DNA of 40,881 nucleotides from Gemmatimonadales bacterium (GCA_041615815.1 JBFJCP010000034.1:1-40881); one strand, 5' to 3'; counted from the stretch's first letter, positions 22,488 through 31,364 are shown. A program made the numbers and translations. Notes: generated by a model from the sequence alone, not told the origin.

Positions 22488-23720
22488 ATGCCCAAGTACG
22501 TCCTCGCCTATTCCGGAGTGCTCGACACCTCCGTAATCCTGAAGTGGCTGCAACTCGAGCATGGCGCCGATGTGGTGACCGTGACGGCGGACCTCGGCCA
22601 GAAGAAAGAATTGCTCGGTGTGCAGGCCAAGGCTCTGGCGTGCGGCGCGACGGCGGCGTACGTGGAGGATCTGCAAGATCAGTTCGTGCAGGAGTTCGTC
22701 TGGCCCACCCTCAAAGCCGGGGCGCTCTATCAAGGTGTGTATCCGATGGCCACGGCCATCGGACGGCCGTTGATCGCCAAACGGCTGGTGGAGATTGCCA
22801 GAGAGGTTGGCGCAGACGCCATCGTGCACGGCTGCTCCGGCAAAGGGAACGATCAGGTGCGTTTCGAGGTGGGCATCGCTGCCCTGGCGCCGGACTTGAA
22901 GTGCCTCGCGCCGCTTCGCACCTGGAACCTCACGAGTCGAGACGACGAGATCGAGTGGGCCCGGCGTCATCGGATTCCCGTGACCGCCAATCGCCAATCG
23001 CCGTACTCGATCGATGAAAACCTGTGGGGACTCTCCGTGGAAGCTGGTCCACTGGAAGATCCGTGGGCGGCACCACCCGAGGACTGCTGGCAGCTGACCG
23101 TTGATCCGGAGATGGCGCCCGCGCAGTCCGTCGAGTTGACGATTGGGTTCGAAGAAGCGGTTCCCGTGTCGCTGGACGGCGAGTCACTTCCGGGAGCGGA
23201 TCTGGTGCGCGCTCTGCGCGACATCGGGGCCGCGCACGGCGTGGGACGCATCGACATGGTCGAAGATCGGTTGGTGGGGATCAAGTCCCGGGAAGTCTAC
23301 GAGGCGCCCGCCGCCATCACGCTCCACGCTGCCCGGCGGTCGCTCGAGCAACTGACACTCGATCGCGAGACCCGACGAGTCCTGCATACCATGGGTGACG
23401 AACTGGCCCGCTTGGTATACGATGGCTTCTGGTTCTCACCGCTGCGCAAGGCCGTTGCGGCCTTCGTGGACGAAGCGGTGAAGCCGATGAGCGGCGAGGT
23501 CCGGGTACGGCTCCATCGCGGCCATGTGACGCCGGTGGGCCGCCGGTCGGCCTATGCGCTCTATGACAGCTCCCTGGCCACGTATGGCGCCGGCGACGGC
23601 TTCAAGCATGCGGCCGCCGAAGGGTTCATCGAGCTCTTTGGCTTGGGTTCGCGGATCGCCAATGCGAACCGTGCCAAGAATGGCGCGCCGGTCACCCCAC
23701 CCCAGGAAGTGCTGGTGTGA
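22488..23720 (+). CDS. argG: argininosuccinate synthase
   Basis: AYSGxLDTS, HGCSGKGNDQVRFE, SIDENLWG and GIKSREVYEAP motifs. Confidence 0.95.
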   Translation: MPKYVLAYSGVLDTSVILKWLQLEHGADVVTVTADLGQKKELLGVQAKALACGATAAYVEDLQDQFVQEFVWPTLKAGALYQGVYPMATAIGRPLIAKRLVEIAREVGADAIVHGCSGKGNDQVRFEVGIAALAPDLKCLAPLRTWNLTSRDDEIEWARRHRIPVTANRQSPYSIDENLWGLSVEAGPLEDPWAAPPEDCWQLTVDPEMAPAQSVELTIGFEEAVPVSLDGESLPGADLVRALRDIGAAHGVGRIDMVEDRLVGIKSREVYEAPAAITLHAARRSLEQLTLDRETRRVLHTMGDELARLVYDGFWFSPLRKAVAAFVDEAVKPMSGEVRVRLHRGHVTPVGRRSAYALYDSSLATYGAGDGFKHAAAEGFIELFGLGSRIANANRAKNGAPVTPPQEVLV

Positions 23721-25123
23721 GCGACCTTTGGGGCGGTCGCTTTTCCGAAGAACCCGACGCACTCCTCCGGCGGTTTTCGTCTTCCTTGTCGGTGGACCGG
23801 CGGCTGGTCACCTACGATCTGACGGCGAGCAAGGCGCATGCAACGGCGCTATGGGACGCGAAGCTCCTGACGGAGGACGAATATCGAAAACTGTTGGAAG
23901 GGCTCGCCCAAATCGAACGAGAAGTGCGAAGCGGCGCATTCCCGTCTCACGACACCAACCCGCTTCCCGAGGATATTCACAGTGCCATCGAAGCGCGGCT
24001 CGTCGAGCTGTGCGGCGATACGGGATACCGAATCCACACGGGGCGGAGCCGAAACGATCAAGTCGTGACGGCCGCCCTCCTGTGGCTGAAAGACGCCGCC
24101 CAGGAACTCGAGGGTGCCGTCCGCGAGGTGCAACGGGCTCTGATCGCGAAGGCACAGGAATACCCCCGTCTGATTGTGCCCTCGTATACGCATCTGCAGC
24201 GCGCCCAACCCGTGCTGCTGGGGCATCATCTCCATGCCCATTTTGAAGCACTGGAACGAGACGTGGGGCGGATCCGTGAGGCCGCGGCTCGAGCGGACCG
24301 CAGCCCGCTCGGTGCCGCCGCCTGCGCCGGATCCTCGTTTCCGTTGGACCGGGAGATCACCGCGCGCAGGCTCGGGTTCAGTCGGGTGTCGCGCAACTCG
24401 ATCGATGCCGTGGCCGATCGCGACTGGGCTCTGGAGATGCTGTCCGTGTGCGCAACAACCATGACGCATCTGTCGCGCCTGGCCGACGAGCTGGTGCTGT
24501 GGTCGAGCCAGGAATTCGGAAGCGTGCGCATTGCCGATGCATGGTGCACCGGATCGTCCGCGTTGCCGCAAAAACGGAATCCCGATGTGGCCGAATTGGT
24601 TCGCGGCCGCGCCGCGCGGGTTCTCGGCGACCTCGTAACCCTCCACGGGGTGCTGAAGGGACTTCCGCTGGCCTACAATCGGGATATGCAGGAGGACAAA
24701 GAGCCCCTGTTCGACGCTGTGGACACCACGCGGGACGCTGCCTTGGCCTTGGCCGGGGCGATCGCGCACACGGAGTTCCTCGAGCCCAGGGATACCGGAC
24801 CGGACTTCTCCACCGCGCTAGATTTAACCGAAGAGTTGGTGCGCCGCGGCACACCCTTTCGCCGGGCACACCGACTGGTTGGAGAGTTGGTGCAAATGCT
24901 CGAGCGAGACGGGCGCGGGCTGCCCGAAGTCACATCGGACGAGTTGGCTCAGATCGGCCTCGCCGATCTCAATCGCTCAGTGCTCACGGCGGAAGGGAGT
25001 ATCAAGGCCAAACGCACCTTCGGCTCCACCGCCCCAAACGAGGTGGCCCGCGAAGTGCAGGATGCGGTTCGGGTGTTGGATGCCCGCGATCGATCGACCA
25101 ATACCATGGAGCTCCACTCATGA
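23717..25123 (+). CDS. argH: argininosuccinate lyase
   Basis: LWGGRF, HTGRSRNDQ, YTHLQRAQP, GSSALPQKRNPD and AYNRDMQEDKE motifs; GTGA overlap with argG. Confidence 0.95.
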   Translation: MSDLWGGRFSEEPDALLRRFSSSLSVDRRLVTYDLTASKAHATALWDAKLLTEDEYRKLLEGLAQIEREVRSGAFPSHDTNPLPEDIHSAIEARLVELCGDTGYRIHTGRSRNDQVVTAALLWLKDAAQELEGAVREVQRALIAKAQEYPRLIVPSYTHLQRAQPVLLGHHLHAHFEALERDVGRIREAAARADRSPLGAAACAGSSFPLDREITARRLGFSRVSRNSIDAVADRDWALEMLSVCATTMTHLSRLADELVLWSSQEFGSVRIADAWCTGSSALPQKRNPDVAELVRGRAARVLGDLVTLHGVLKGLPLAYNRDMQEDKEPLFDAVDTTRDAALALAGAIAHTEFLEPRDTGPDFSTALDLTEELVRRGTPFRRAHRLVGELVQMLERDGRGLPEVTSDELAQIGLADLNRSVLTAEGSIKAKRTFGSTAPNEVAREVQDAVRVLDARDRSTNTMELHS

Positions 25124-26352
25124 CGGACGCAATCGGCACCAAGGACGCCGCGGCATATCTCGCGGAGGTCGACCGATACGGCGCGCATAACTATCACCCG
25201 CTCCCCGTCGTGTTGTCGCATGGCGAAGGGGCCTGGGTGTGGGACGTCGAAGGGAAGAAGTACCTGGATTGCCTCGCGGCCTATTCGGCCGTCAATCAGG
25301 GACACCGCCACCCCGCAATCATCCACGCCGCCAAGCAGCAGCTCGATCGGCTGACGCTCACCTCCCGAGCGTTCCACAACGATCAAATGGGTCCATTCCT
25401 CAAACGGCTGTGTGAGGTGACCGGATACGAAAAGGTCCTGCCGATGAATACGGGCGCGGAAGCGGTGGAGACGGCCATCAAGGCCGCTCGCCGCTGGGGC
25501 TATCGAGTGAAGGGGATTCCCGCCGACAAGGCGGAGATCATCGTGTGCTCGAACAATTTCCATGGACGGACCACGACGATCATCTCGTTTTCCACCGATC
25601 AGGAGCACAACGCGGATTACGGACCCATCACCCCAGGGTTCCCGATCATTCCCTATGGCGACGTGAAGGCGTTGGAGCGGGCGATCACCCCCGCCACCGC
25701 AGGCTTCCTATTCGAGCCCATCCAGGGAGAAGGAGGCGTGATCCTGCCACCCAACGGCTACATCGCTGAGGCGGCCACGATTTGTAGCGCGCACAACGTG
25801 CTACTCATGGCCGATGAGATCCAGACCGGACTCGGCCGCACGGGGAACATGTTCTGCTGCGATTGGGAAGACGTGCGTCCGGACATCGTCATGGTCGGGA
25901 AAGCACTGAGCGGTGGCGTGTATCCCGTGTCGGCCATGCTGGCCGACGCCGTGGTGATGGACGTGTTCCAGCCCGGCGACCACGGCTCGACGTACGGGGG
26001 CAACCCGCTGGGTGCGGCCGTTGCGTTGGCGGCCATCGATGTCCTGGTGGACGAGCAGCTGCCCGCGCGTGCCCTCGAATTGGGCGATTGGCTCATGCGA
26101 GAGCTCCAGGCGCTCGACGCTCCGTGCGTCACCGAAGTGCGGGGGAAAGGGCTCATGATCGGCATCGAGATCGATCCGGCCTATGGGCCGGCCCGCGTGT
26201 ACTGCGAACAGCTCAAGGAGCGGGGCATCCTGGCCAAGGAGACCCACGAGCAGGTGATCCGCCTCGCCCCACCCCTAGTCGTCCTCCGCGAGGACCTCCA
26301 GTGGGCGGCAGAACAGGTGAAAGAGGTGTTGGGTGGGGCGGAGCGGGGGTAG
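25120..26352 (+). CDS. rocD: ornithine--oxo-acid transaminase
   Basis: GAHNYHPLPVV, AYSAVNQGH, LTLTSRAFHND, EPIQGEGG, DEIQTGLGRTG, GKALSGG and HGSTYGGNP motifs; ATGA overlap with argH. Confidence 0.93.
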   Translation: MTDAIGTKDAAAYLAEVDRYGAHNYHPLPVVLSHGEGAWVWDVEGKKYLDCLAAYSAVNQGHRHPAIIHAAKQQLDRLTLTSRAFHNDQMGPFLKRLCEVTGYEKVLPMNTGAEAVETAIKAARRWGYRVKGIPADKAEIIVCSNNFHGRTTTIISFSTDQEHNADYGPITPGFPIIPYGDVKALERAITPATAGFLFEPIQGEGGVILPPNGYIAEAATICSAHNVLLMADEIQTGLGRTGNMFCCDWEDVRPDIVMVGKALSGGVYPVSAMLADAVVMDVFQPGDHGSTYGGNPLGAAVALAAIDVLVDEQLPARALELGDWLMRELQALDAPCVTEVRGKGLMIGIEIDPAYGPARVYCEQLKERGILAKETHEQVIRLAPPLVVLREDLQWAAEQVKEVLGGAERG

Positions 26353-26366
26353 GAGATCGGGTTTGC

Positions 26367-26400
26367 GGGGTCGGGTCGGAACCTCCGGAACCCCGGCCCC
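26367..26400 (+). terminator. GC-rich hairpin after rocD built from opposed heptamer-like units
   Basis: ggggtcggg-tcgga acc tccgga-a-c-cccggcccc; the U-tail is poor. Confidence 0.4.
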
Positions 26401-26403
26401 CTC

Positions 26404-26432
26404 TTGCCAGCCATTCTAGGACCCCTCATACT
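26404..26432 (+). promoter_or_regulatory. sigma70-type promoter
   Basis: TTGCCA (26404-26409), a 17-nt spacer and CATACT (26427-26432), just upstream of an AAGGAG RBS. Confidence 0.65.
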
Positions 26433-26454
26433 GCAGACGGCAAGGAGCGCTCTG

Positions 26455-26532
26455 ATGATTGGCCACTGTTTGCACCAGCCCTTTACCAGCCCCGGGATCT
26501 CGTCTGGGGGCCGAGGGTGGGGTATGCGCTGA
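26455..26532 (+). CDS. putative leader peptide MIGHCLHQPFTSPGISSGGRGWGMR
   Basis: AAGGAG (26442-26447) lies 7 nt before the ATG; the ORF ends 33 nt before the terminator hairpin; too short for the ORF track. Confidence 0.6.
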   Translation: MIGHCLHQPFTSPGISSGGRGWGMR

Positions 26533-26565
26533 TCGAAGGCGCCCGCTCTCTGTTGGTGTTGGCAC

Positions 26566-26591
26566 GCCCCCGATGACGCCGGGGGTTTTTT
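26566..26591 (+). terminator. leader (attenuator) terminator upstream of the PheRS-like gene
   Basis: gcccccg-atgacgc-cggggg followed by T6; ends 31 nt before ATG 26623. Confidence 0.8.
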
Positions 26592-26622
26592 GTGCCTGCG
26601 ACACTGAGCCCAGGAGAGTACG

Positions 26623-27739
26623 ATGCCGAACGTCAAGTTGACCCACGACGCGTATCGCCATGCCCTCGCGGTCCGGGACCTCACGGATCCGGCACGTGGC
26701 GGGCACGCCATGCAGCTGCTGATCGCCGCGATCGAAACGGCCCTGCGGGTGGCTTGGGGGTGCGACTTGCTCCTCCATCGTGCGCATCCCGTGGTGTCGG
26801 TTGCCGATAACTACGACCGGCTGCACTACCCACCGGGGGGAGCGGCGAGAGACGCGCGATACACACGATACGTCAGCGAGACGCTGCTCCTCAGGACGCA
26901 CACCTCGGCCATGATCCCGGCGCTGCTGCGCCGGCTCGCGGTCGAGCCGCCCCGCGACGTGCTGTTGGTCTGTCCCGGTCTCGTCTATCGCCGAGATCAG
27001 ATCGATCGTCTGCACACGGGGGAACCGCACCAGCTGGATCTCTGGCGGATCTATCGGGGGAGACTCGGGGTGGATTCCCTGCGAGACATGATCGCCTGCG
27101 TGGTCACCGCCGCGCTTCCAGGGCGCGACCCCATCACCGCGGCCACCACGCATCCGTACACCGAGCACGGCCTCGAGATCTACGTCCGCGATGGGGAGCA
27201 CCGGGTGGAGGTTGGCGAGTGCGGTCTCGCATCGCCCCACGTCCTCCAGGAAGCCGGACTCGACCCGCGGGTGTATAGTGGCCTCGCGATGGGGCTCGGT
27301 CTCGATCGGATCCTGATGATGCGAAAAGGCGTGGAGGACATCCGGTTGCTGCGCAGCGCCGACCAGCGGGTCGCTGCACAAATGCTGGACCTCGAGCGCT
27401 ACCAACCGGTGTCCAACCAACCACGCATCCGGAGGGATCTTTTCGGTGGCCGTGACACAGGACCTTACGCCGGAAGAGTTGGGTGATCGGGTGCGCGAGG
27501 TGCTGGGTGACTCCGCGCTCCAACTCGAGAGCCTGGATGTGGTATCCGAAACCGCGTACGACGCCCTGCCGGCATCGGCGATCCACCGCATGGGAATTCA
27601 GCCCCATCAGAAGAATTTGCTGATTCGATTGGTGATTCGTGATCCCGTACGCACACTGACGGCGGAAGAGGCCAATCGGCTCCGGGATCGCGTGTACGCC
27701 GCGGTGCATGAGGGGGAAAAGGGCGAGTGGGCGAGATAG
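26623..27739 (+). CDS. PheRS-alpha-like class II ligase with C-terminal FDX-ACB domain, split by a +1 frameshift at 27439-27442
   Basis: Frame 0 has LLRTHTS, PGLVYRRDQID..H...HQ and GLAMGLGLDRILM..DIRLL. The +1 frame restores RRDLSVAV and LLIRLVIRDPVRTLTAEEAN (FDX-ACB). Joined product is 371 aa; the unshifted product is 287 aa (stop at 27486). Confidence 0.85.
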
Positions 27740-27789
27740 GGGCTAGGGGCCCATCTAGTCCCTAACCCCTGGCTCCTATGACTCCTATC
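27737..27789. repeat. opposed heptamer arrays at a convergent gene junction
   Basis: taggggc taggggc facing atctagt ccctaac ccctggc tcctatg; the TAG stops of both flanking genes lie in repeat-like units. Confidence 0.75.
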
Positions 27790-29863
27790 TGTTCGACACC
27801 TCTGCACCCGCTGCCGTCGGCTCGGCGACGTCCTTCACATGTTGCTCGTACCAACTCATCATGTAGAGCAACGTGCGCATGGCATTGGAGGGTTTCGCTC
27901 CCGTCCCGTGGTACTCGCCCTGGAACCGCAGCAGCTTGGTGGGGACGCCACGGAGCTTGAGCGTCGTAAAGAGCTCCTCGGACTGCGGCATCGGGGTTCG
28001 CATGTCGAGCTCGCCCGTCATGACGAGGGTCGGCGTGTTGATGTTCCCCACATACATTACGGACGACTGCTCGAGCCACTGCGCGGGGTTTTCCCAGAAC
28101 GGCTGATGGAAGAAGCTCAGCGTGAACTGTGGAATATCAGTCTGTCCGAGCATGCTGATCCAGTTGGTGACGGGACACCGCACGGCCGCCGCGGCGAAGC
28201 GATCGGTGTGGCCGATCACCCAGCTGGAAAGCACACCTCCTCCACTGCATCCACCCACGTACATTCGCGTGGTGTCGACAATGCCCTGGCCGATCACGGC
28301 GTCGACGCCGGCCATGAGGTCGTCGTAGTCCACGCTGGGATACGCGTGATCGATGGCACGGGAGAAGTCCTCGCCGTAACCCGTGCTGCCACGGGGGTTC
28401 GTGTACAACACGAGGTAGCCGTTGGCCGCCATCATCTGAAACCGGACGTCGAAGCCCACGGTATACATGGCAAATGGCCCGCCGTGGATCTCCATGATGA
28501 GCGGGTACTGTTGCGACGGATCGAAATCGGGTGGCTTGACGATCCATCCTTGAATGCGTGCGTTGTTGCTGGAGGTGTACCGGATCTGCTCCACGTCGCC
28601 CAAGCGTTTTCCAAAGAGAAGGTCACTGTTGACGTTCGTGAGCCTTTGCGTCGAGCCGTTCGCCAGATTCACCCGGACCACGTCGCCGGGTTCGTCGAAG
28701 TCGCTCCGCGTGCCGACACCGGTGGATCCGGAAATCGAGCTCAATGCAAGGACCTGCGTACCGCGGGTGACCGGACGAACGCCATCCTGGATCGATGCCA
28801 GATGCACGTTCACCGTTCCTTCGTCCTGTGCGGTGAAGTAGATCCCGCCGGAGTTGGGAGCCCACCAGATCGACATGGGATTCCGGTCGAATGCTCCCAT
28901 CAGGTTGCGAACGTTGGTGCCGTCCATTCCCATCACGTAGACGTCCGGAGCCGAGTACGTGGCCGGATTCTGCGGATACCCCGTGAAGGCGATCCGTTGT
29001 CCGTTGGGCGACACTTTCGGGTCGGACCAAAAACCCGCCTGGCGAGTGAGCTGTCGCACTTGCTTCGTCCGGACGTTCACGGCGTAGATATGCGATCGCT
29101 GGTAGGCGTGATCGCCATCCTCGTCCATGAGGCCGTCGAATATGATGGTCTGACCGTCGGGTGCCCAATCGAAGCCGACGCCAAACGCGAGGCCATCGAA
29201 CCGCGCACCCACGTTCCAGTCGCCGCTCGTGATCGGTTGTGGCGTACCGCCGTCTGCGGTGACCACGAAGAGATGCGTGAATCCCGGATCGGTGAATCCG
29301 CGCCGGTCCTGGCGGTAGTGTAGCCGATCCACCACGCGGGGCGCCTCCGTCCACTTTGCCCCCTCGGGCGGTGTGGGCATCTCGATCTGCCATTGGTCTT
29401 TTGACTCGACCGTCATGGCAAACGCGATGCTGGTGCCGTCGGGTGACCACGCGGGGCTCTCCGGACTCTCGGTGAGCCGTGTGATCTGGGAGGTTGCGCC
29501 CTCGGCATCCATCCAGCGTACGAAGATCTGTGACCCCTTGGGCTCGCCCTCGGCAAGGTAGAGAATCCGCGAACCGTCCGGCGACCATCGGGGGCTCGAT
29601 CCCTTCACCAAAAACCGATTGCGCGAGCCGTCGGCATTGATGATCCAGAGCGCCGACTCCCACTTGTCCTCCAGTTTGTCGACCCACCGACGGGTGTACA
29701 CGACGCGTGATCCGTCGGGCGAGATCTGCGGATCGCCCACCCGTTCGAGATCCAGATAGTCGGCGACCGTGAGGTGGTTGGACGTCGGGGTATCCTGCGC
29801 GTACACCGGGAGGGCAAGCACCGTGACGGCAAACGTGACGAGGAGCGCTGGAACGAACCGCAT
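27785..29863 (-). CDS. secreted S9 family (prolyl oligopeptidase/acylaminoacyl) peptidase
   Basis: Signal peptide (VYA-QD), PD40-like WSPDG propeller repeats, HGGP, GCSGGG nucleophile, ELDMR and GEYHG triad. Confidence 0.95.
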   Translation of the reverse strand: MRFVPALLVTFAVTVLALPVYAQDTPTSNHLTVADYLDLERVGDPQISPDGSRVVYTRRWVDKLEDKWESALWIINADGSRNRFLVKGSSPRWSPDGSRILYLAEGEPKGSQIFVRWMDAEGATSQITRLTESPESPAWSPDGTSIAFAMTVESKDQWQIEMPTPPEGAKWTEAPRVVDRLHYRQDRRGFTDPGFTHLFVVTADGGTPQPITSGDWNVGARFDGLAFGVGFDWAPDGQTIIFDGLMDEDGDHAYQRSHIYAVNVRTKQVRQLTRQAGFWSDPKVSPNGQRIAFTGYPQNPATYSAPDVYVMGMDGTNVRNLMGAFDRNPMSIWWAPNSGGIYFTAQDEGTVNVHLASIQDGVRPVTRGTQVLALSSISGSTGVGTRSDFDEPGDVVRVNLANGSTQRLTNVNSDLLFGKRLGDVEQIRYTSSNNARIQGWIVKPPDFDPSQQYPLIMEIHGGPFAMYTVGFDVRFQMMAANGYLVLYTNPRGSTGYGEDFSRAIDHAYPSVDYDDLMAGVDAVIGQGIVDTTRMYVGGCSGGGVLSSWVIGHTDRFAAAAVRCPVTNWISMLGQTDIPQFTLSFFHQPFWENPAQWLEQSSVMYVGNINTPTLVMTGELDMRTPMPQSEELFTTLKLRGVPTKLLRFQGEYHGTGAKPSNAMRTLLYMMSWYEQHVKDVAEPTAAGAEVSNR

Positions 29864-30020
29864 AGGAACTCCGGGAGGAATTATTCCTCTAAAACAAGCC
29901 ACAGGTGAGGGTAGAGGGAAGAGGGAGCGAAGATTTCGGAGTGCCCAATGCAGATGGCCGAATTCTGCAGGGGAGAATCCGGGCCGGGCCAACCGCGGCC
30001 CTTTGCGCTCGGCACTCCCT

Positions 30021-31364
30021 TCATTCGGTACTCGGCACTCGCTGGTCCGTCTCCGGCAGCACGGCGTTCAGCACTAGTGCCACGAGTCCGCCGGTCACGA
30101 GTCCCGATCCCAGAAGCGTGCGGAGCGCATCAGGCACGTGCTGGAGCGCGTCGGGTCGGAGCTCCACGCCGAGGCCGAGACCCAACGAGACGGCGAGGAT
30201 GACCATGTTGCGCTGTGTGAGGTGGGTACTGCGGTGGATGATGGCTGCTCCGCTGGCAAAGATCATGGCGAACATGATGAGCCCGCCACCGCCAATCACG
30301 GCCGGCGGGATCGTGGCCAACAGCGCGCCCACTTTGGGTACGATGCCCAACAGAATGAGGATGACGCCTGCCACCCCGGTCACGTGACGGCTCACGATCC
30401 CGGTGAAGTTCACGAGCCCCACGTTCTGCGAGTATGAAGTATTGGGAAACGCGCCGAACAGCGCCGCGAGCGCGCTCATGACGCCGTCGGCGATCAGTCC
30501 GCCCTTGAGTTCGCTCGTCGTAGGCTCCCTCCCCGCGGCCGCGAGAATGCCGGAGATGTCCCCGAGGGTCTCCATCGTACTGATCACGTAGATGAATCCC
30601 ATGAGGACGATGGCATTCCAATGAAACTCGACTCCCCACACCAGCGGTTGGGGGACGGCGATCCAGCGGGCGGAGGTGAGGCCGGAGAAATCCACCTCGC
30701 CAATGCCAACCGCCAGCGCGTATCCCACGATCACCCCAATCAGCATGCTGGCATAGCCGACGAAGCCGCGGGAGATCCGGTTTAGCACGAGCGTCACCAG
30801 GAACACGATCCCCGCCACCCCCAGGTTGGTGAGCGAGCCGTAGTCGGCCGCTCCCACGCCACCGGCCGCGTAGTCGACACCCACGGGGATGAGCGTGAGC
30901 CCGATCAGCATCACGACCGTTCCGTTGACCAGCGGTGGGAAGAGCCGGCGGAAACGGCCAATCGAGAATCCGAGCACCACCTCCACTGCGGCGGCGACCA
31001 GGCAAGCGCCAAAGACCGCAGGGAGACCGTACTGGTGCCCAATCGCGATGATCCCGCCCACGAACGCGATGCTGGTTCCCATGATCACCGGAATGCGACC
31101 GCCCACGGGACCAATCGGATAGGCCTGGACCAGCGTGGCCACGCCGGCCATGAAGAACACCATTTGTAGCAGGAAAGCCGTGTCGCCGGTCGCGAGACCG
31201 AGCGCGCCAGCCACCAAGAGTGGGGGAGTGACGTTCCCGAGCAGCATCGCCACTAGATGCTGCACACCCAACGGCACGGCTTCCCGAATCGGCGGACGGT
31301 CGTCGATGTCGTAAACGACAGCGGTGGTCGTGCGAGGCTTGATGCGCTCGGAGTGCGGAACTAT
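30021..31364 (-). CDS. NCS2/NAT nucleobase:cation symporter (xanthine/urate type)
   Basis: QH motif in TM1 and NAT signature QNVGLVNFTG. The family-typical YDIDDRPP lies upstream of GTG 31277, so the start is placed tentatively at ATA 31364. Confidence 0.9.
   Translation of the reverse strand: MVPHSERIKPRTTTAVVYDIDDRPPIREAVPLGVQHLVAMLLGNVTPPLLVAGALGLATGDTAFLLQMVFFMAGVATLVQAYPIGPVGGRIPVIMGTSIAFVGGIIAIGHQYGLPAVFGACLVAAAVEVVLGFSIGRFRRLFPPLVNGTVVMLIGLTLIPVGVDYAAGGVGAADYGSLTNLGVAGIVFLVTLVLNRISRGFVGYASMLIGVIVGYALAVGIGEVDFSGLTSARWIAVPQPLVWGVEFHWNAIVLMGFIYVISTMETLGDISGILAAAGREPTTSELKGGLIADGVMSALAALFGAFPNTSYSQNVGLVNFTGIVSRHVTGVAGVILILLGIVPKVGALLATIPPAVIGGGGLIMFAMIFASGAAIIHRSTHLTQRNMVILAVSLGLGLGVELRPDALQHVPDALRTLLGSGLVTGGLVALVLNAVLPETDQRVPSTE

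Follow-up and report, generated by a model that had tools for sequence, protein, structure and literature searches.

A candidate programmed +1 frameshift site in srmL, a PheRS-like gene of a Gemmatimonadales bacterium

The srmL locus and its two reading frames

The window, meaning the whole stretch of 40,881 nucleotides from a Gemmatimonadales bacterium (GCA_041615815.1, JBFJCP010000034.1) that was analysed, carries on its plus strand a gene, srmL, whose coding sequence is divided over two reading frames (Table 1). The gene begins with the ATG at 26623, and this start uses a Shine-Dalgarno (SD) sequence of its own. The frame-0 ORF (26623–27486) encodes 287 amino acids and ends with a TGA at 27484–27486, and frame +1 stays open between 27443 and the TAG at 27737–27739. 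From 27430 onward the plus strand reads CGG AGG GAT CTT TTC GGT GGC, and direct reading thus agrees with the initial annotation, which had described the sequence CGG AGG GAT CTT TTC with GGAGG at 27431–27435 and CTT at 27439–27441; the TTC occupies 27442–27444. The SD-like hexamer, the spacer codon and the slip site are referred to below as the cassette.

Table 1. Features of srmL and of the site where its reading frame changes.
Feature	Position	Strand	Remarks
AGGAG ribosome-binding site	26612..26616	+	6 nt 5' of the srmL ATG; read directly
srmL frame-0 part, 273 codons to CTT (Leu273), class II PheRS-type catalytic core	26623..27441	+	PF01409, NF051887
Internal SD-like hexamer CGGAGG, made of two Arg codons	27430..27435	+	AGGAGG in G001
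GAT spacer codon, the E-site codon with CTT in the P site	27436..27438	+	Identical in G001
Slip site CTT_T	27439..27442	+	Read directly; identical in G001
Frame-0 continuation: TTC (Phe, competing A-site codon), 13 codons and TGA stop	27442..27486	+	
srmL frame +1 part, 98 codons and TAG, FDX-ACB domain, first residue the invariant Ser274	27443..27739	+	NF051887

The first 273 codons match PF01409 with an E value of 1.5e-32, and the +1 part has a weak match to PF03147 (FDX-ACB) with an E value of 9.4e-5, below the Pfam cut-off. The profile NF051887, which is the NCBIfam family 'PheS-related mystery ligase SrmL', aligns by its positions 1–258 to 26671–27441 with about 381 bits (curated cut-off 300) and by its positions 259–349 to 27443–27715 in frame +1 with 101.4 bits. 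Positions 258 and 259 are adjacent in the profile and one base lies between the two halves, indicating that exactly one base is surplus at the break. When CTTT is read as one step the parts join into a protein of 371 amino acids (P0001) spanning NF051887 positions 1–349, and the claim that skipping one base restores RRDL-SVAV and the FDX-ACB domain in a 371-residue product is therefore correct. The product belongs to the SrmL family, as the N part alone scores over the curated cut-off and the catalytic core and FDX-ACB domain are contiguous across the frame change. It shows 104.9 bits to TIGR00468 (canonical PheRS alpha, cut-off 237.45) and 97.9 bits to TIGR00469 (mitochondrial PheRS, cut-off 258.35), in both cases below the threshold, and canonical pheS/pheT are also present in the genome, on contig C16. 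The pocket motif of SrmL is HPYTEHG, where PheS of M. tuberculosis has FPFTEPS at the same place. P0001 is 60–67% identical to SrmL members with a continuous gene.

An AlphaFold model of P0001, built with a 34-sequence alignment, has a pLDDT of 91.6 and a pTM of 0.87. The C-terminal domain of the model is beta-alpha-beta and ferredoxin-like, and the frame junction (residues 273/274) is predicted to lie within strand 269–278, the first strand of this domain. The best structural match is the monomeric human mitochondrial PheRS (PDB 3CMQ, TM 0.74 over 411 columns), which has the same two-domain build, indicating that only the joined reading yields a known architecture, although the identity is 22% and the pocket motif of SrmL differs from that of PheS.

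Between an upstream aminotransferase-like ORF and srmL, at about 26556–26596, a hairpin rich in G+C precedes a T run; the arrangement looks like an intrinsic terminator, and srmL therefore probably has its own transcript. An antisense ORF of 391 amino acids (26416–27591, minus strand) overlaps srmL, exceeding each of the two sense pieces in length. Programs that pick the longest ORF choose this antisense ORF, which is an annotation trap for the GC-rich srmL, and the crude ORF set from which the codon frequencies below were counted wrongly preferred it to srmL in the same way.

If the true gene had three Ts, the frame change would be a sequencing or assembly error, and the read-level support for the break does consist of assembled contigs rather than raw reads. 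However, Logan contigs from runs of two studies, possibly the source samples, cover 26600–27800 with zero indels, and a 95–99% variant from a soil run of a third study (X6, record 12) is gap-free over 27419–27572, reaching only 23 nt past the site on the left. Contig X7, which begins at 27438, fails to span the site. The exact 287-aa frame-0 ORF is found on 68 contigs of the protein collection, a one-residue variant of it on 3 and the 97-aa ORF of the +1 frame on 87, so that the split ORFs recur on dozens of per-run contigs; a continuous near-identical allele was not found in this collection, in which the best full-length match to P0001 is 67% identical. As an identical break is also present in a different species and a different assembly (G001, below), an error of this kind is hardly conceivable.

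Recurrence of the break and selection on both halves

In G001, the genome of another species of the same genus, the NF051887 match is likewise split between 258 and 259, the halves being separated by one base. The site reads AGG AGG GAT CTT TTC CGT TGC, and frame +1 continues with SVAVPHDLT. The 14-nt GGAGGGATCTTTTC is identical in window and G001 at 14 of 14 positions, in genes that overall show 64% nucleotide identity in a gap-free alignment, and only one identical run shared by the two srmL genes is longer. A third lineage is represented by P0123, encoded on an ENA contig of 1978 nt, which is identical to the G001 product at 236 of 279 residues and ends with RRDLFGCRAA. Its tail differs from that of G001 by two residues, R to G and T to A; these correspond to first-position changes in frame 0 and should therefore be third-position changes in frame +1, judging from the protein. 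The cassette DNA was read in two lineages, window and G001, while that of P0123 is deduced from the frame-0 protein. Recurrence at the RRDLS site had been put forward in the initial annotation as a check, with the frameshift reading to be abandoned if close homologues were all continuous; break and cassette do recur in G001, which is broken at 258/259, and P0123 has the same RRDLF tail.

In a quick IQ-TREE analysis of the N part with 146 rows, window, G001 and P0123 form one clade (SH-aLRT 97), and the cassette of srmL appears to have a single evolutionary origin. The tree path from window to G001 is 0.79 substitutions per site, and the root-to-tip lengths of the frameshifted clade are similar to those of the continuous sister clade. 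SrmL scores over the cut-off in two genomes among 41 relatives and in 2 of the 401 genomes (78 genera) of the host's family, in each case those of the window and G001; both tallies include eight unpublished genomes, all of them negative rows. SrmL is absent from G002, a third species of the genus. A further 160 loci, taken from metagenomes and genomes, include none broken at the cassette site, and all 159 other SrmL members examined (159/159) are continuous there. Four of the 160 loci (L155, L178, L180 and L183), from other phyla and several of them from MAGs, are broken elsewhere, at residues of about 298–318, which likely reflects sequencing errors or ordinary decay. The occurrence in 2 of 401 genomes, the absence from G002 and the four broken loci indicate that srmL is dispensable and breakable. 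In locus L111 a second, partial SrmL C-terminal domain (L111:5393-5581, query residues 308–370, 60% identity) is located about 1.3 kb downstream of the intact srmL of that genome.

The flanks of srmL have nothing in common between G001 (L131) and the window at 23000–31000, and no recurrent partner was found among 30 neighbouring ORFs at 15 loci, so the gene context gives no functional clue. The unrelated neighbourhoods in the two species, together with the absence from 399 of the 401 family genomes, suggest that srmL arrived or was moved as one gene, with the cassette already in place.

The two ORFs could also represent a split gene, i.e. a 287-aa core and a 97-aa anticodon-binding domain that starts at GTG 27446 with GGAGG as its ribosomal binding site, the two polypeptides associating after translation. 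In the window the GGAGG is indeed located 10 nt before this GTG, and gene callers report the 97-aa ORF on the 87 contigs mentioned above. A start codon suitably spaced from the SD is thus present in the window but not in G001, which keeps the SD and has GTT and GTA in place of the GTG of the window. In the +1 frame of G001 the nearest start-like codons are at -25, without an SD, and at +30, with no ATG, GTG or TTG in between. A separate C-part ORF of G001 or P0123 was not found in the protein collection. In addition, the break would fall inside beta-strand 269–278 of the model, the codon of the invariant Ser274 is located 5' of the GTG and is conserved with a synonymous change, and CTT and the 3-nt spacing would be left without a role, all of which makes a split gene improbable. 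Translational coupling at the frame-0 stops was considered as well and rejected, as the overlaps ATGA (G001) and GTGA (window) lie in the third frame and not in that of the C part.

Between window and G001 there are zero indels and zero stops in either half of srmL. The N part in frame 0 has a pS of 0.68 and a pN of 0.22, with an omega of about 0.15, and the C part in frame +1 has a pN of 0.29 and a pS of 0.79, which is saturated so that omega is not computable. The identities at codon positions 1, 2 and 3 are 0.71, 0.83 and 0.43 for the N part in frame 0 and 0.63, 0.79 and 0.33 for the C part in frame +1, indicating that the coding signature moves to frame +1 at the cassette. The amino acid of the Ser274 codon is invariant with a synonymous change, TCG in the window and TCC in G001. 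Conserved columns were defined as the 154 with at least 95% conservation in 143 continuous homologues; the window keeps 148 and G001 140 of these, where continuous members have a median of 153 and a range of 138–154. In the C part 34 of 35 such columns are kept in the window and 31 of 35 in G001. Both are at the low end of the range, and the C part is no worse than the N part.

These values bear on whether the gene is a shared pseudogene, in which the T goes back to an ancestral insertion and the gene now either decays or is tolerated by accidental low-level slippage without function. Such a history would fit an accessory gene that is present in 2 of 401 family genomes and broken elsewhere in 4 of 160 loci, the T run is a plausible site for an insertion, and the 140 of 154 conserved columns in G001 are in its favour. 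However, neither half has acquired an indel or a stop while synonymous sites became saturated, pN/pS is far below 1 in both halves, the codon periodicity follows frame +1 after the site, and root-to-tip lengths are similar in the frameshifted clade and its continuous sister clade. AGG and CTT would moreover be needed besides the extra base, and both are kept in both species. A gene dead since the common ancestor of the window species and G001 would not be expected to look like this, no relaxed selection or further disabling mutations after the break being seen, and we regard a shared pseudogene as very unlikely.

The extra base is thus neither an assembly error nor the mark of a dead gene, and we reject the alternative of the initial annotation, an extra T by assembly error or recent pseudogenisation, on account of the contigs, the second species, the selection and the periodicity. 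Its core reading, a frameshift cassette within srmL, appears well supported by the recurrence, by purifying selection on the domain encoded in frame +1 and by the lack of the cassette codons in continuous relatives.

The cassette in continuous relatives and in the host genome

In the 159 continuous homologues the second Arg codon at the site is CGC in 101, CGG in 22, CGT in 20 and the cassette codon AGG in 7, and the Leu codon is CTC in 64, CTG in 57 and the cassette codon CTT in 5. Two of the 159 have at least five of six matches to AGGAGG before the Asp codon, and none of them combines an AGGAGG-like hexamer with CTT. Loci similar to the sister clade have CGC/CGT GAC/GAT CTC/CTG/TTG TCN at this place. 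In the window genome AGG makes up 4.4% of the Arg codons in the crude ORF set, so the AGG within the SD is rare, as the initial annotation had said; CTT accounts for 8.2% of the Leu codons in the same set, and UUC is the preferred Phe codon with 74%. AGG and CTT being rare at the site, the clade has gained the extra T, AGG and CTT and has kept all three while third positions elsewhere were randomised, and the comparison indicates that the cassette is built, and not merely broken.

The 4.19-Mb genome contains 15 copies of GGAGGNNNCTTT on both strands. Only the copy in srmL has the CTT in frame, with an upstream ORF of 277 codons, a frame-0 stop close by and a +1 frame that is open, and none of the other 14 sites in the genome qualifies as a frameshift cassette. 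Two copies that look similar are inside long ORFs read in another frame and were rejected. In the crude ORF set GGAGGNNNCTTT is found 0 times in frame and 6 times in frame 2, which are too few to show avoidance. The frame-0 tail is not conserved, since G001 stops 7 codons after the CTT while the frame-0 product of the window continues to the TGA given above. The minimum free energy folds of the 90 nt 3' of the site differ between window and G001, in a comparison of two sequences only.

The genome encodes one tRNA-Leu(GAG) and one tRNA-Phe(GAA). Its prfB gene (contig C5, at about 138,900–139,000, minus strand; L198 around 1508) has the sequence CGAGGT CAC CTT TGA C, and prfB of G002 reads CGAGGT TAC CTT TGA C; in both genomes the SD-like element of prfB is located one register further 3' than in srmL. 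With CTT_TGA_C in its own prfB, the host can be expected to be capable of CTT_T +1 frameshifting. A search of G001, an assembly that is 91% complete, gave no prfB match at E <= 1e-100, and the gene is probably unassembled. The 3' end of the 16S rRNA was not found in the assembly of the window genome, and the anti-SD sequence is for that reason assumed. SD usage calculated from crude starts is 26%, an unreliable estimate. The 48 tRNAs predicted in the genome by ARAGORN include a tRNA-Sec(TCA) and a tRNA-Gly whose anticodon is ACC.

The proposed frameshift and its relation to known systems

Directly observed are the cassette and its conservation, selection in both reading frames and a coherent protein on read-through. 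On these grounds srmL is probably expressed by a programmed +1 slip, stimulated by the SD, in which tRNA-Leu moves from CUU to UUU and a two-domain enzyme of 371 amino acids is made, and deliberate recoding is preferred to damage because related species kept the signal. Translation would start at ATG 26623 and decode 273 codons in frame 0. With CUU (Leu273) in the P site, CGGAGG, 3 nt upstream, should pair with the anti-SD end of 16S rRNA, and peptidyl-tRNA-Leu(GAG) would re-pair from CUU onto the overlapping UUU. Decoding would then resume at UCG (Ser274) in frame +1 and proceed up to the TAG, giving an enzyme that joins a catalytic core of the PheRS type to an anticodon-binding domain with a ferredoxin fold; the junction peptide predicted for the +1 slip is DLSVAVTQDLTPEELGDR. 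Should Phe-tRNA instead be accepted at the frame-0 UUC, the 287-aa product without the anticodon-binding domain would result, with its stop at TGA 27484–27486. The slip itself, its efficiency and any regulation are thus what we infer from the sequences.

Other forms of recoding at the same site are conceivable, although together they seem highly improbable. RNA polymerase might slip on the T run, but the homopolymers known to support transcriptional slippage are longer than the four Ts present here. Alternatively, tRNA-Phe might slip by -2 from UUC to UUU, since tRNA-Phe(GAA) pairs perfectly with the UUU two bases back and the frame change is the same. This slip would however add one Phe residue, whereas the +1 product fits the family gap-free at RRDL-SVAV, and the geometry published for +1 shifts has the SD 3 nt away from the P-site codon, as far as given in the excerpted texts of PMC12421855 and PMC5009743.

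For the +1 slip of tRNA-Leu the A-site codon is the weak point. UUC is neither a stop nor a rare codon but the preferred Phe codon, read by its cognate tRNA, so that the usual slow A-site element is missing and the efficiency could be low. Kinetic work on the RF2 site, in the portion of PMC2377451 consulted, describes slippage in the P site as dominant and the supply to the A site as modulating; from this some shifting would be expected at srmL, and more when Phe-tRNA is scarce. Shifting and the decoding of UUC are in competition, and more full-length protein should accordingly be made when charged tRNA-Phe is in short supply. A putative sensing of Phe-tRNA by the UUC, proposed in the initial annotation as an autoregulatory switch, is possible but doubtful on the sequences at hand, and because CTT_T followed by the invariant Ser codon TCN requires TTC as the frame-0 codon, the Phe codon is not independent evidence for it. 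More speculatively still, srmL might be a natural hungry-codon sensor, in which a shortage of charged tRNA-Phe would cause a pause at UUC, the SD would push the ribosome to +1 and full-length SrmL would be made. SrmL might then be a stand-by monomeric tRNA-Phe-related ligase, in an RF2-style autoregulatory loop acting on a sense codon.

Among bacterial chromosomal genes, prfB is the textbook example of +1 frameshifting at CUU_U with stimulation by an SD; to our knowledge there is no second case. In the passages of PMC12421855 that we draw on, the prfB motif has the consensus AGGGGG with CTTT three nucleotides downstream, and a premature stop in prfB is recorded in 64% of 12,753 genomes. srmL resembles the motif, as described in parts of PMC12421855 and PMC5009743, by an SD-like hexamer in two codons, a spacer of one codon and CUU in the P site followed by U. 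The Leu codon is thus in the P site of a CUU_U, the hexamer ends 3 nt before the CUU, a frame-0 stop follows soon after the slip site, and the cassette is conserved across species with synonymous sites diverged (third-position identity 0.33–0.43), and the host's own prfB uses the same device. Unlike prfB, which has UGA followed by C, srmL has the sense codon UUC in the A site, with one cognate tRNA gene and no slow decoding to be expected, and competition with a release factor plays no part. srmL is furthermore a paralogue of PheRS, its site lies within a domain, at codon 273 of 371, rather than near the start, and the cassette is confined to one small clade. The description of the cassette as prfB-like in the initial annotation consequently holds for the SD hexamer, the 3-nt spacer and CUU_U but not for a slow A-site codon, UUC being the commonest Phe codon of the genome. 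By its sequence the site should work like the prfB cassette but it lacks one defining feature, and it is best regarded as a form of SD-stimulated +1 frameshifting and not as a member of the prfB system.

An A site occupied by a sense codon, with tRNA-Leu leaving CUU, also characterizes hungry-codon +1 frameshifting, known from CUU_AGG_C of yeast Ty1/ABP140 and from starved E. coli, where yields vary with how much cognate aminoacyl-tRNA is available, according to excerpts of PMC2377451 and PMC5009743. The 2016 review by Atkins and colleagues, in the section of PMC5009743 referred to, states that no natural starvation-specific trans-frame protein from such frameshifting is known. The A-site codon in those cases is rare or starvation is imposed, whereas srmL combines the common UUC with an SD stimulator. 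Curran and Yarus reportedly engineered RF2 cassettes with sense codons in the A site; these constructs share with srmL the SD, the CUU and the sense codon, and set frameshifting against aminoacyl-tRNA selection, but they were made in the laboratory whereas the cassette of srmL is natural and conserved. dnaX resembles srmL in that its long and short products (tau/gamma) differ in their C-terminal domains and an SD acts as stimulator, but there, as given in part of PMC5009743, the shift is -1 on A_AAA_AAG and the shifted product is the short one. Our literature search returned no paper on SrmL, SRML denoting other things among the matches listed, and none on a frameshifted PheRS paralogue, supplements being outside the search. 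A 'tRNA synthetase' cluster in Table 2 of PMC3711429 is labelled PV and not programmed frameshifting.

If srmL is expressed by the proposed slip, a prfB-type cassette would be present in an unrelated gene, with a sense codon replacing the stop, and would have been kept across species while synonymous sites became saturated, showing that the RF2 device is portable. The srmL genes of this clade should not be annotated as pseudogenes, and the 287-aa and 97-aa calls would be artefacts. srmL may thus serve as a natural test case of whether sense-codon frameshifting can report the supply of aminoacyl-tRNA, and it offers an initial clue to function in the uncharacterised SrmL family.
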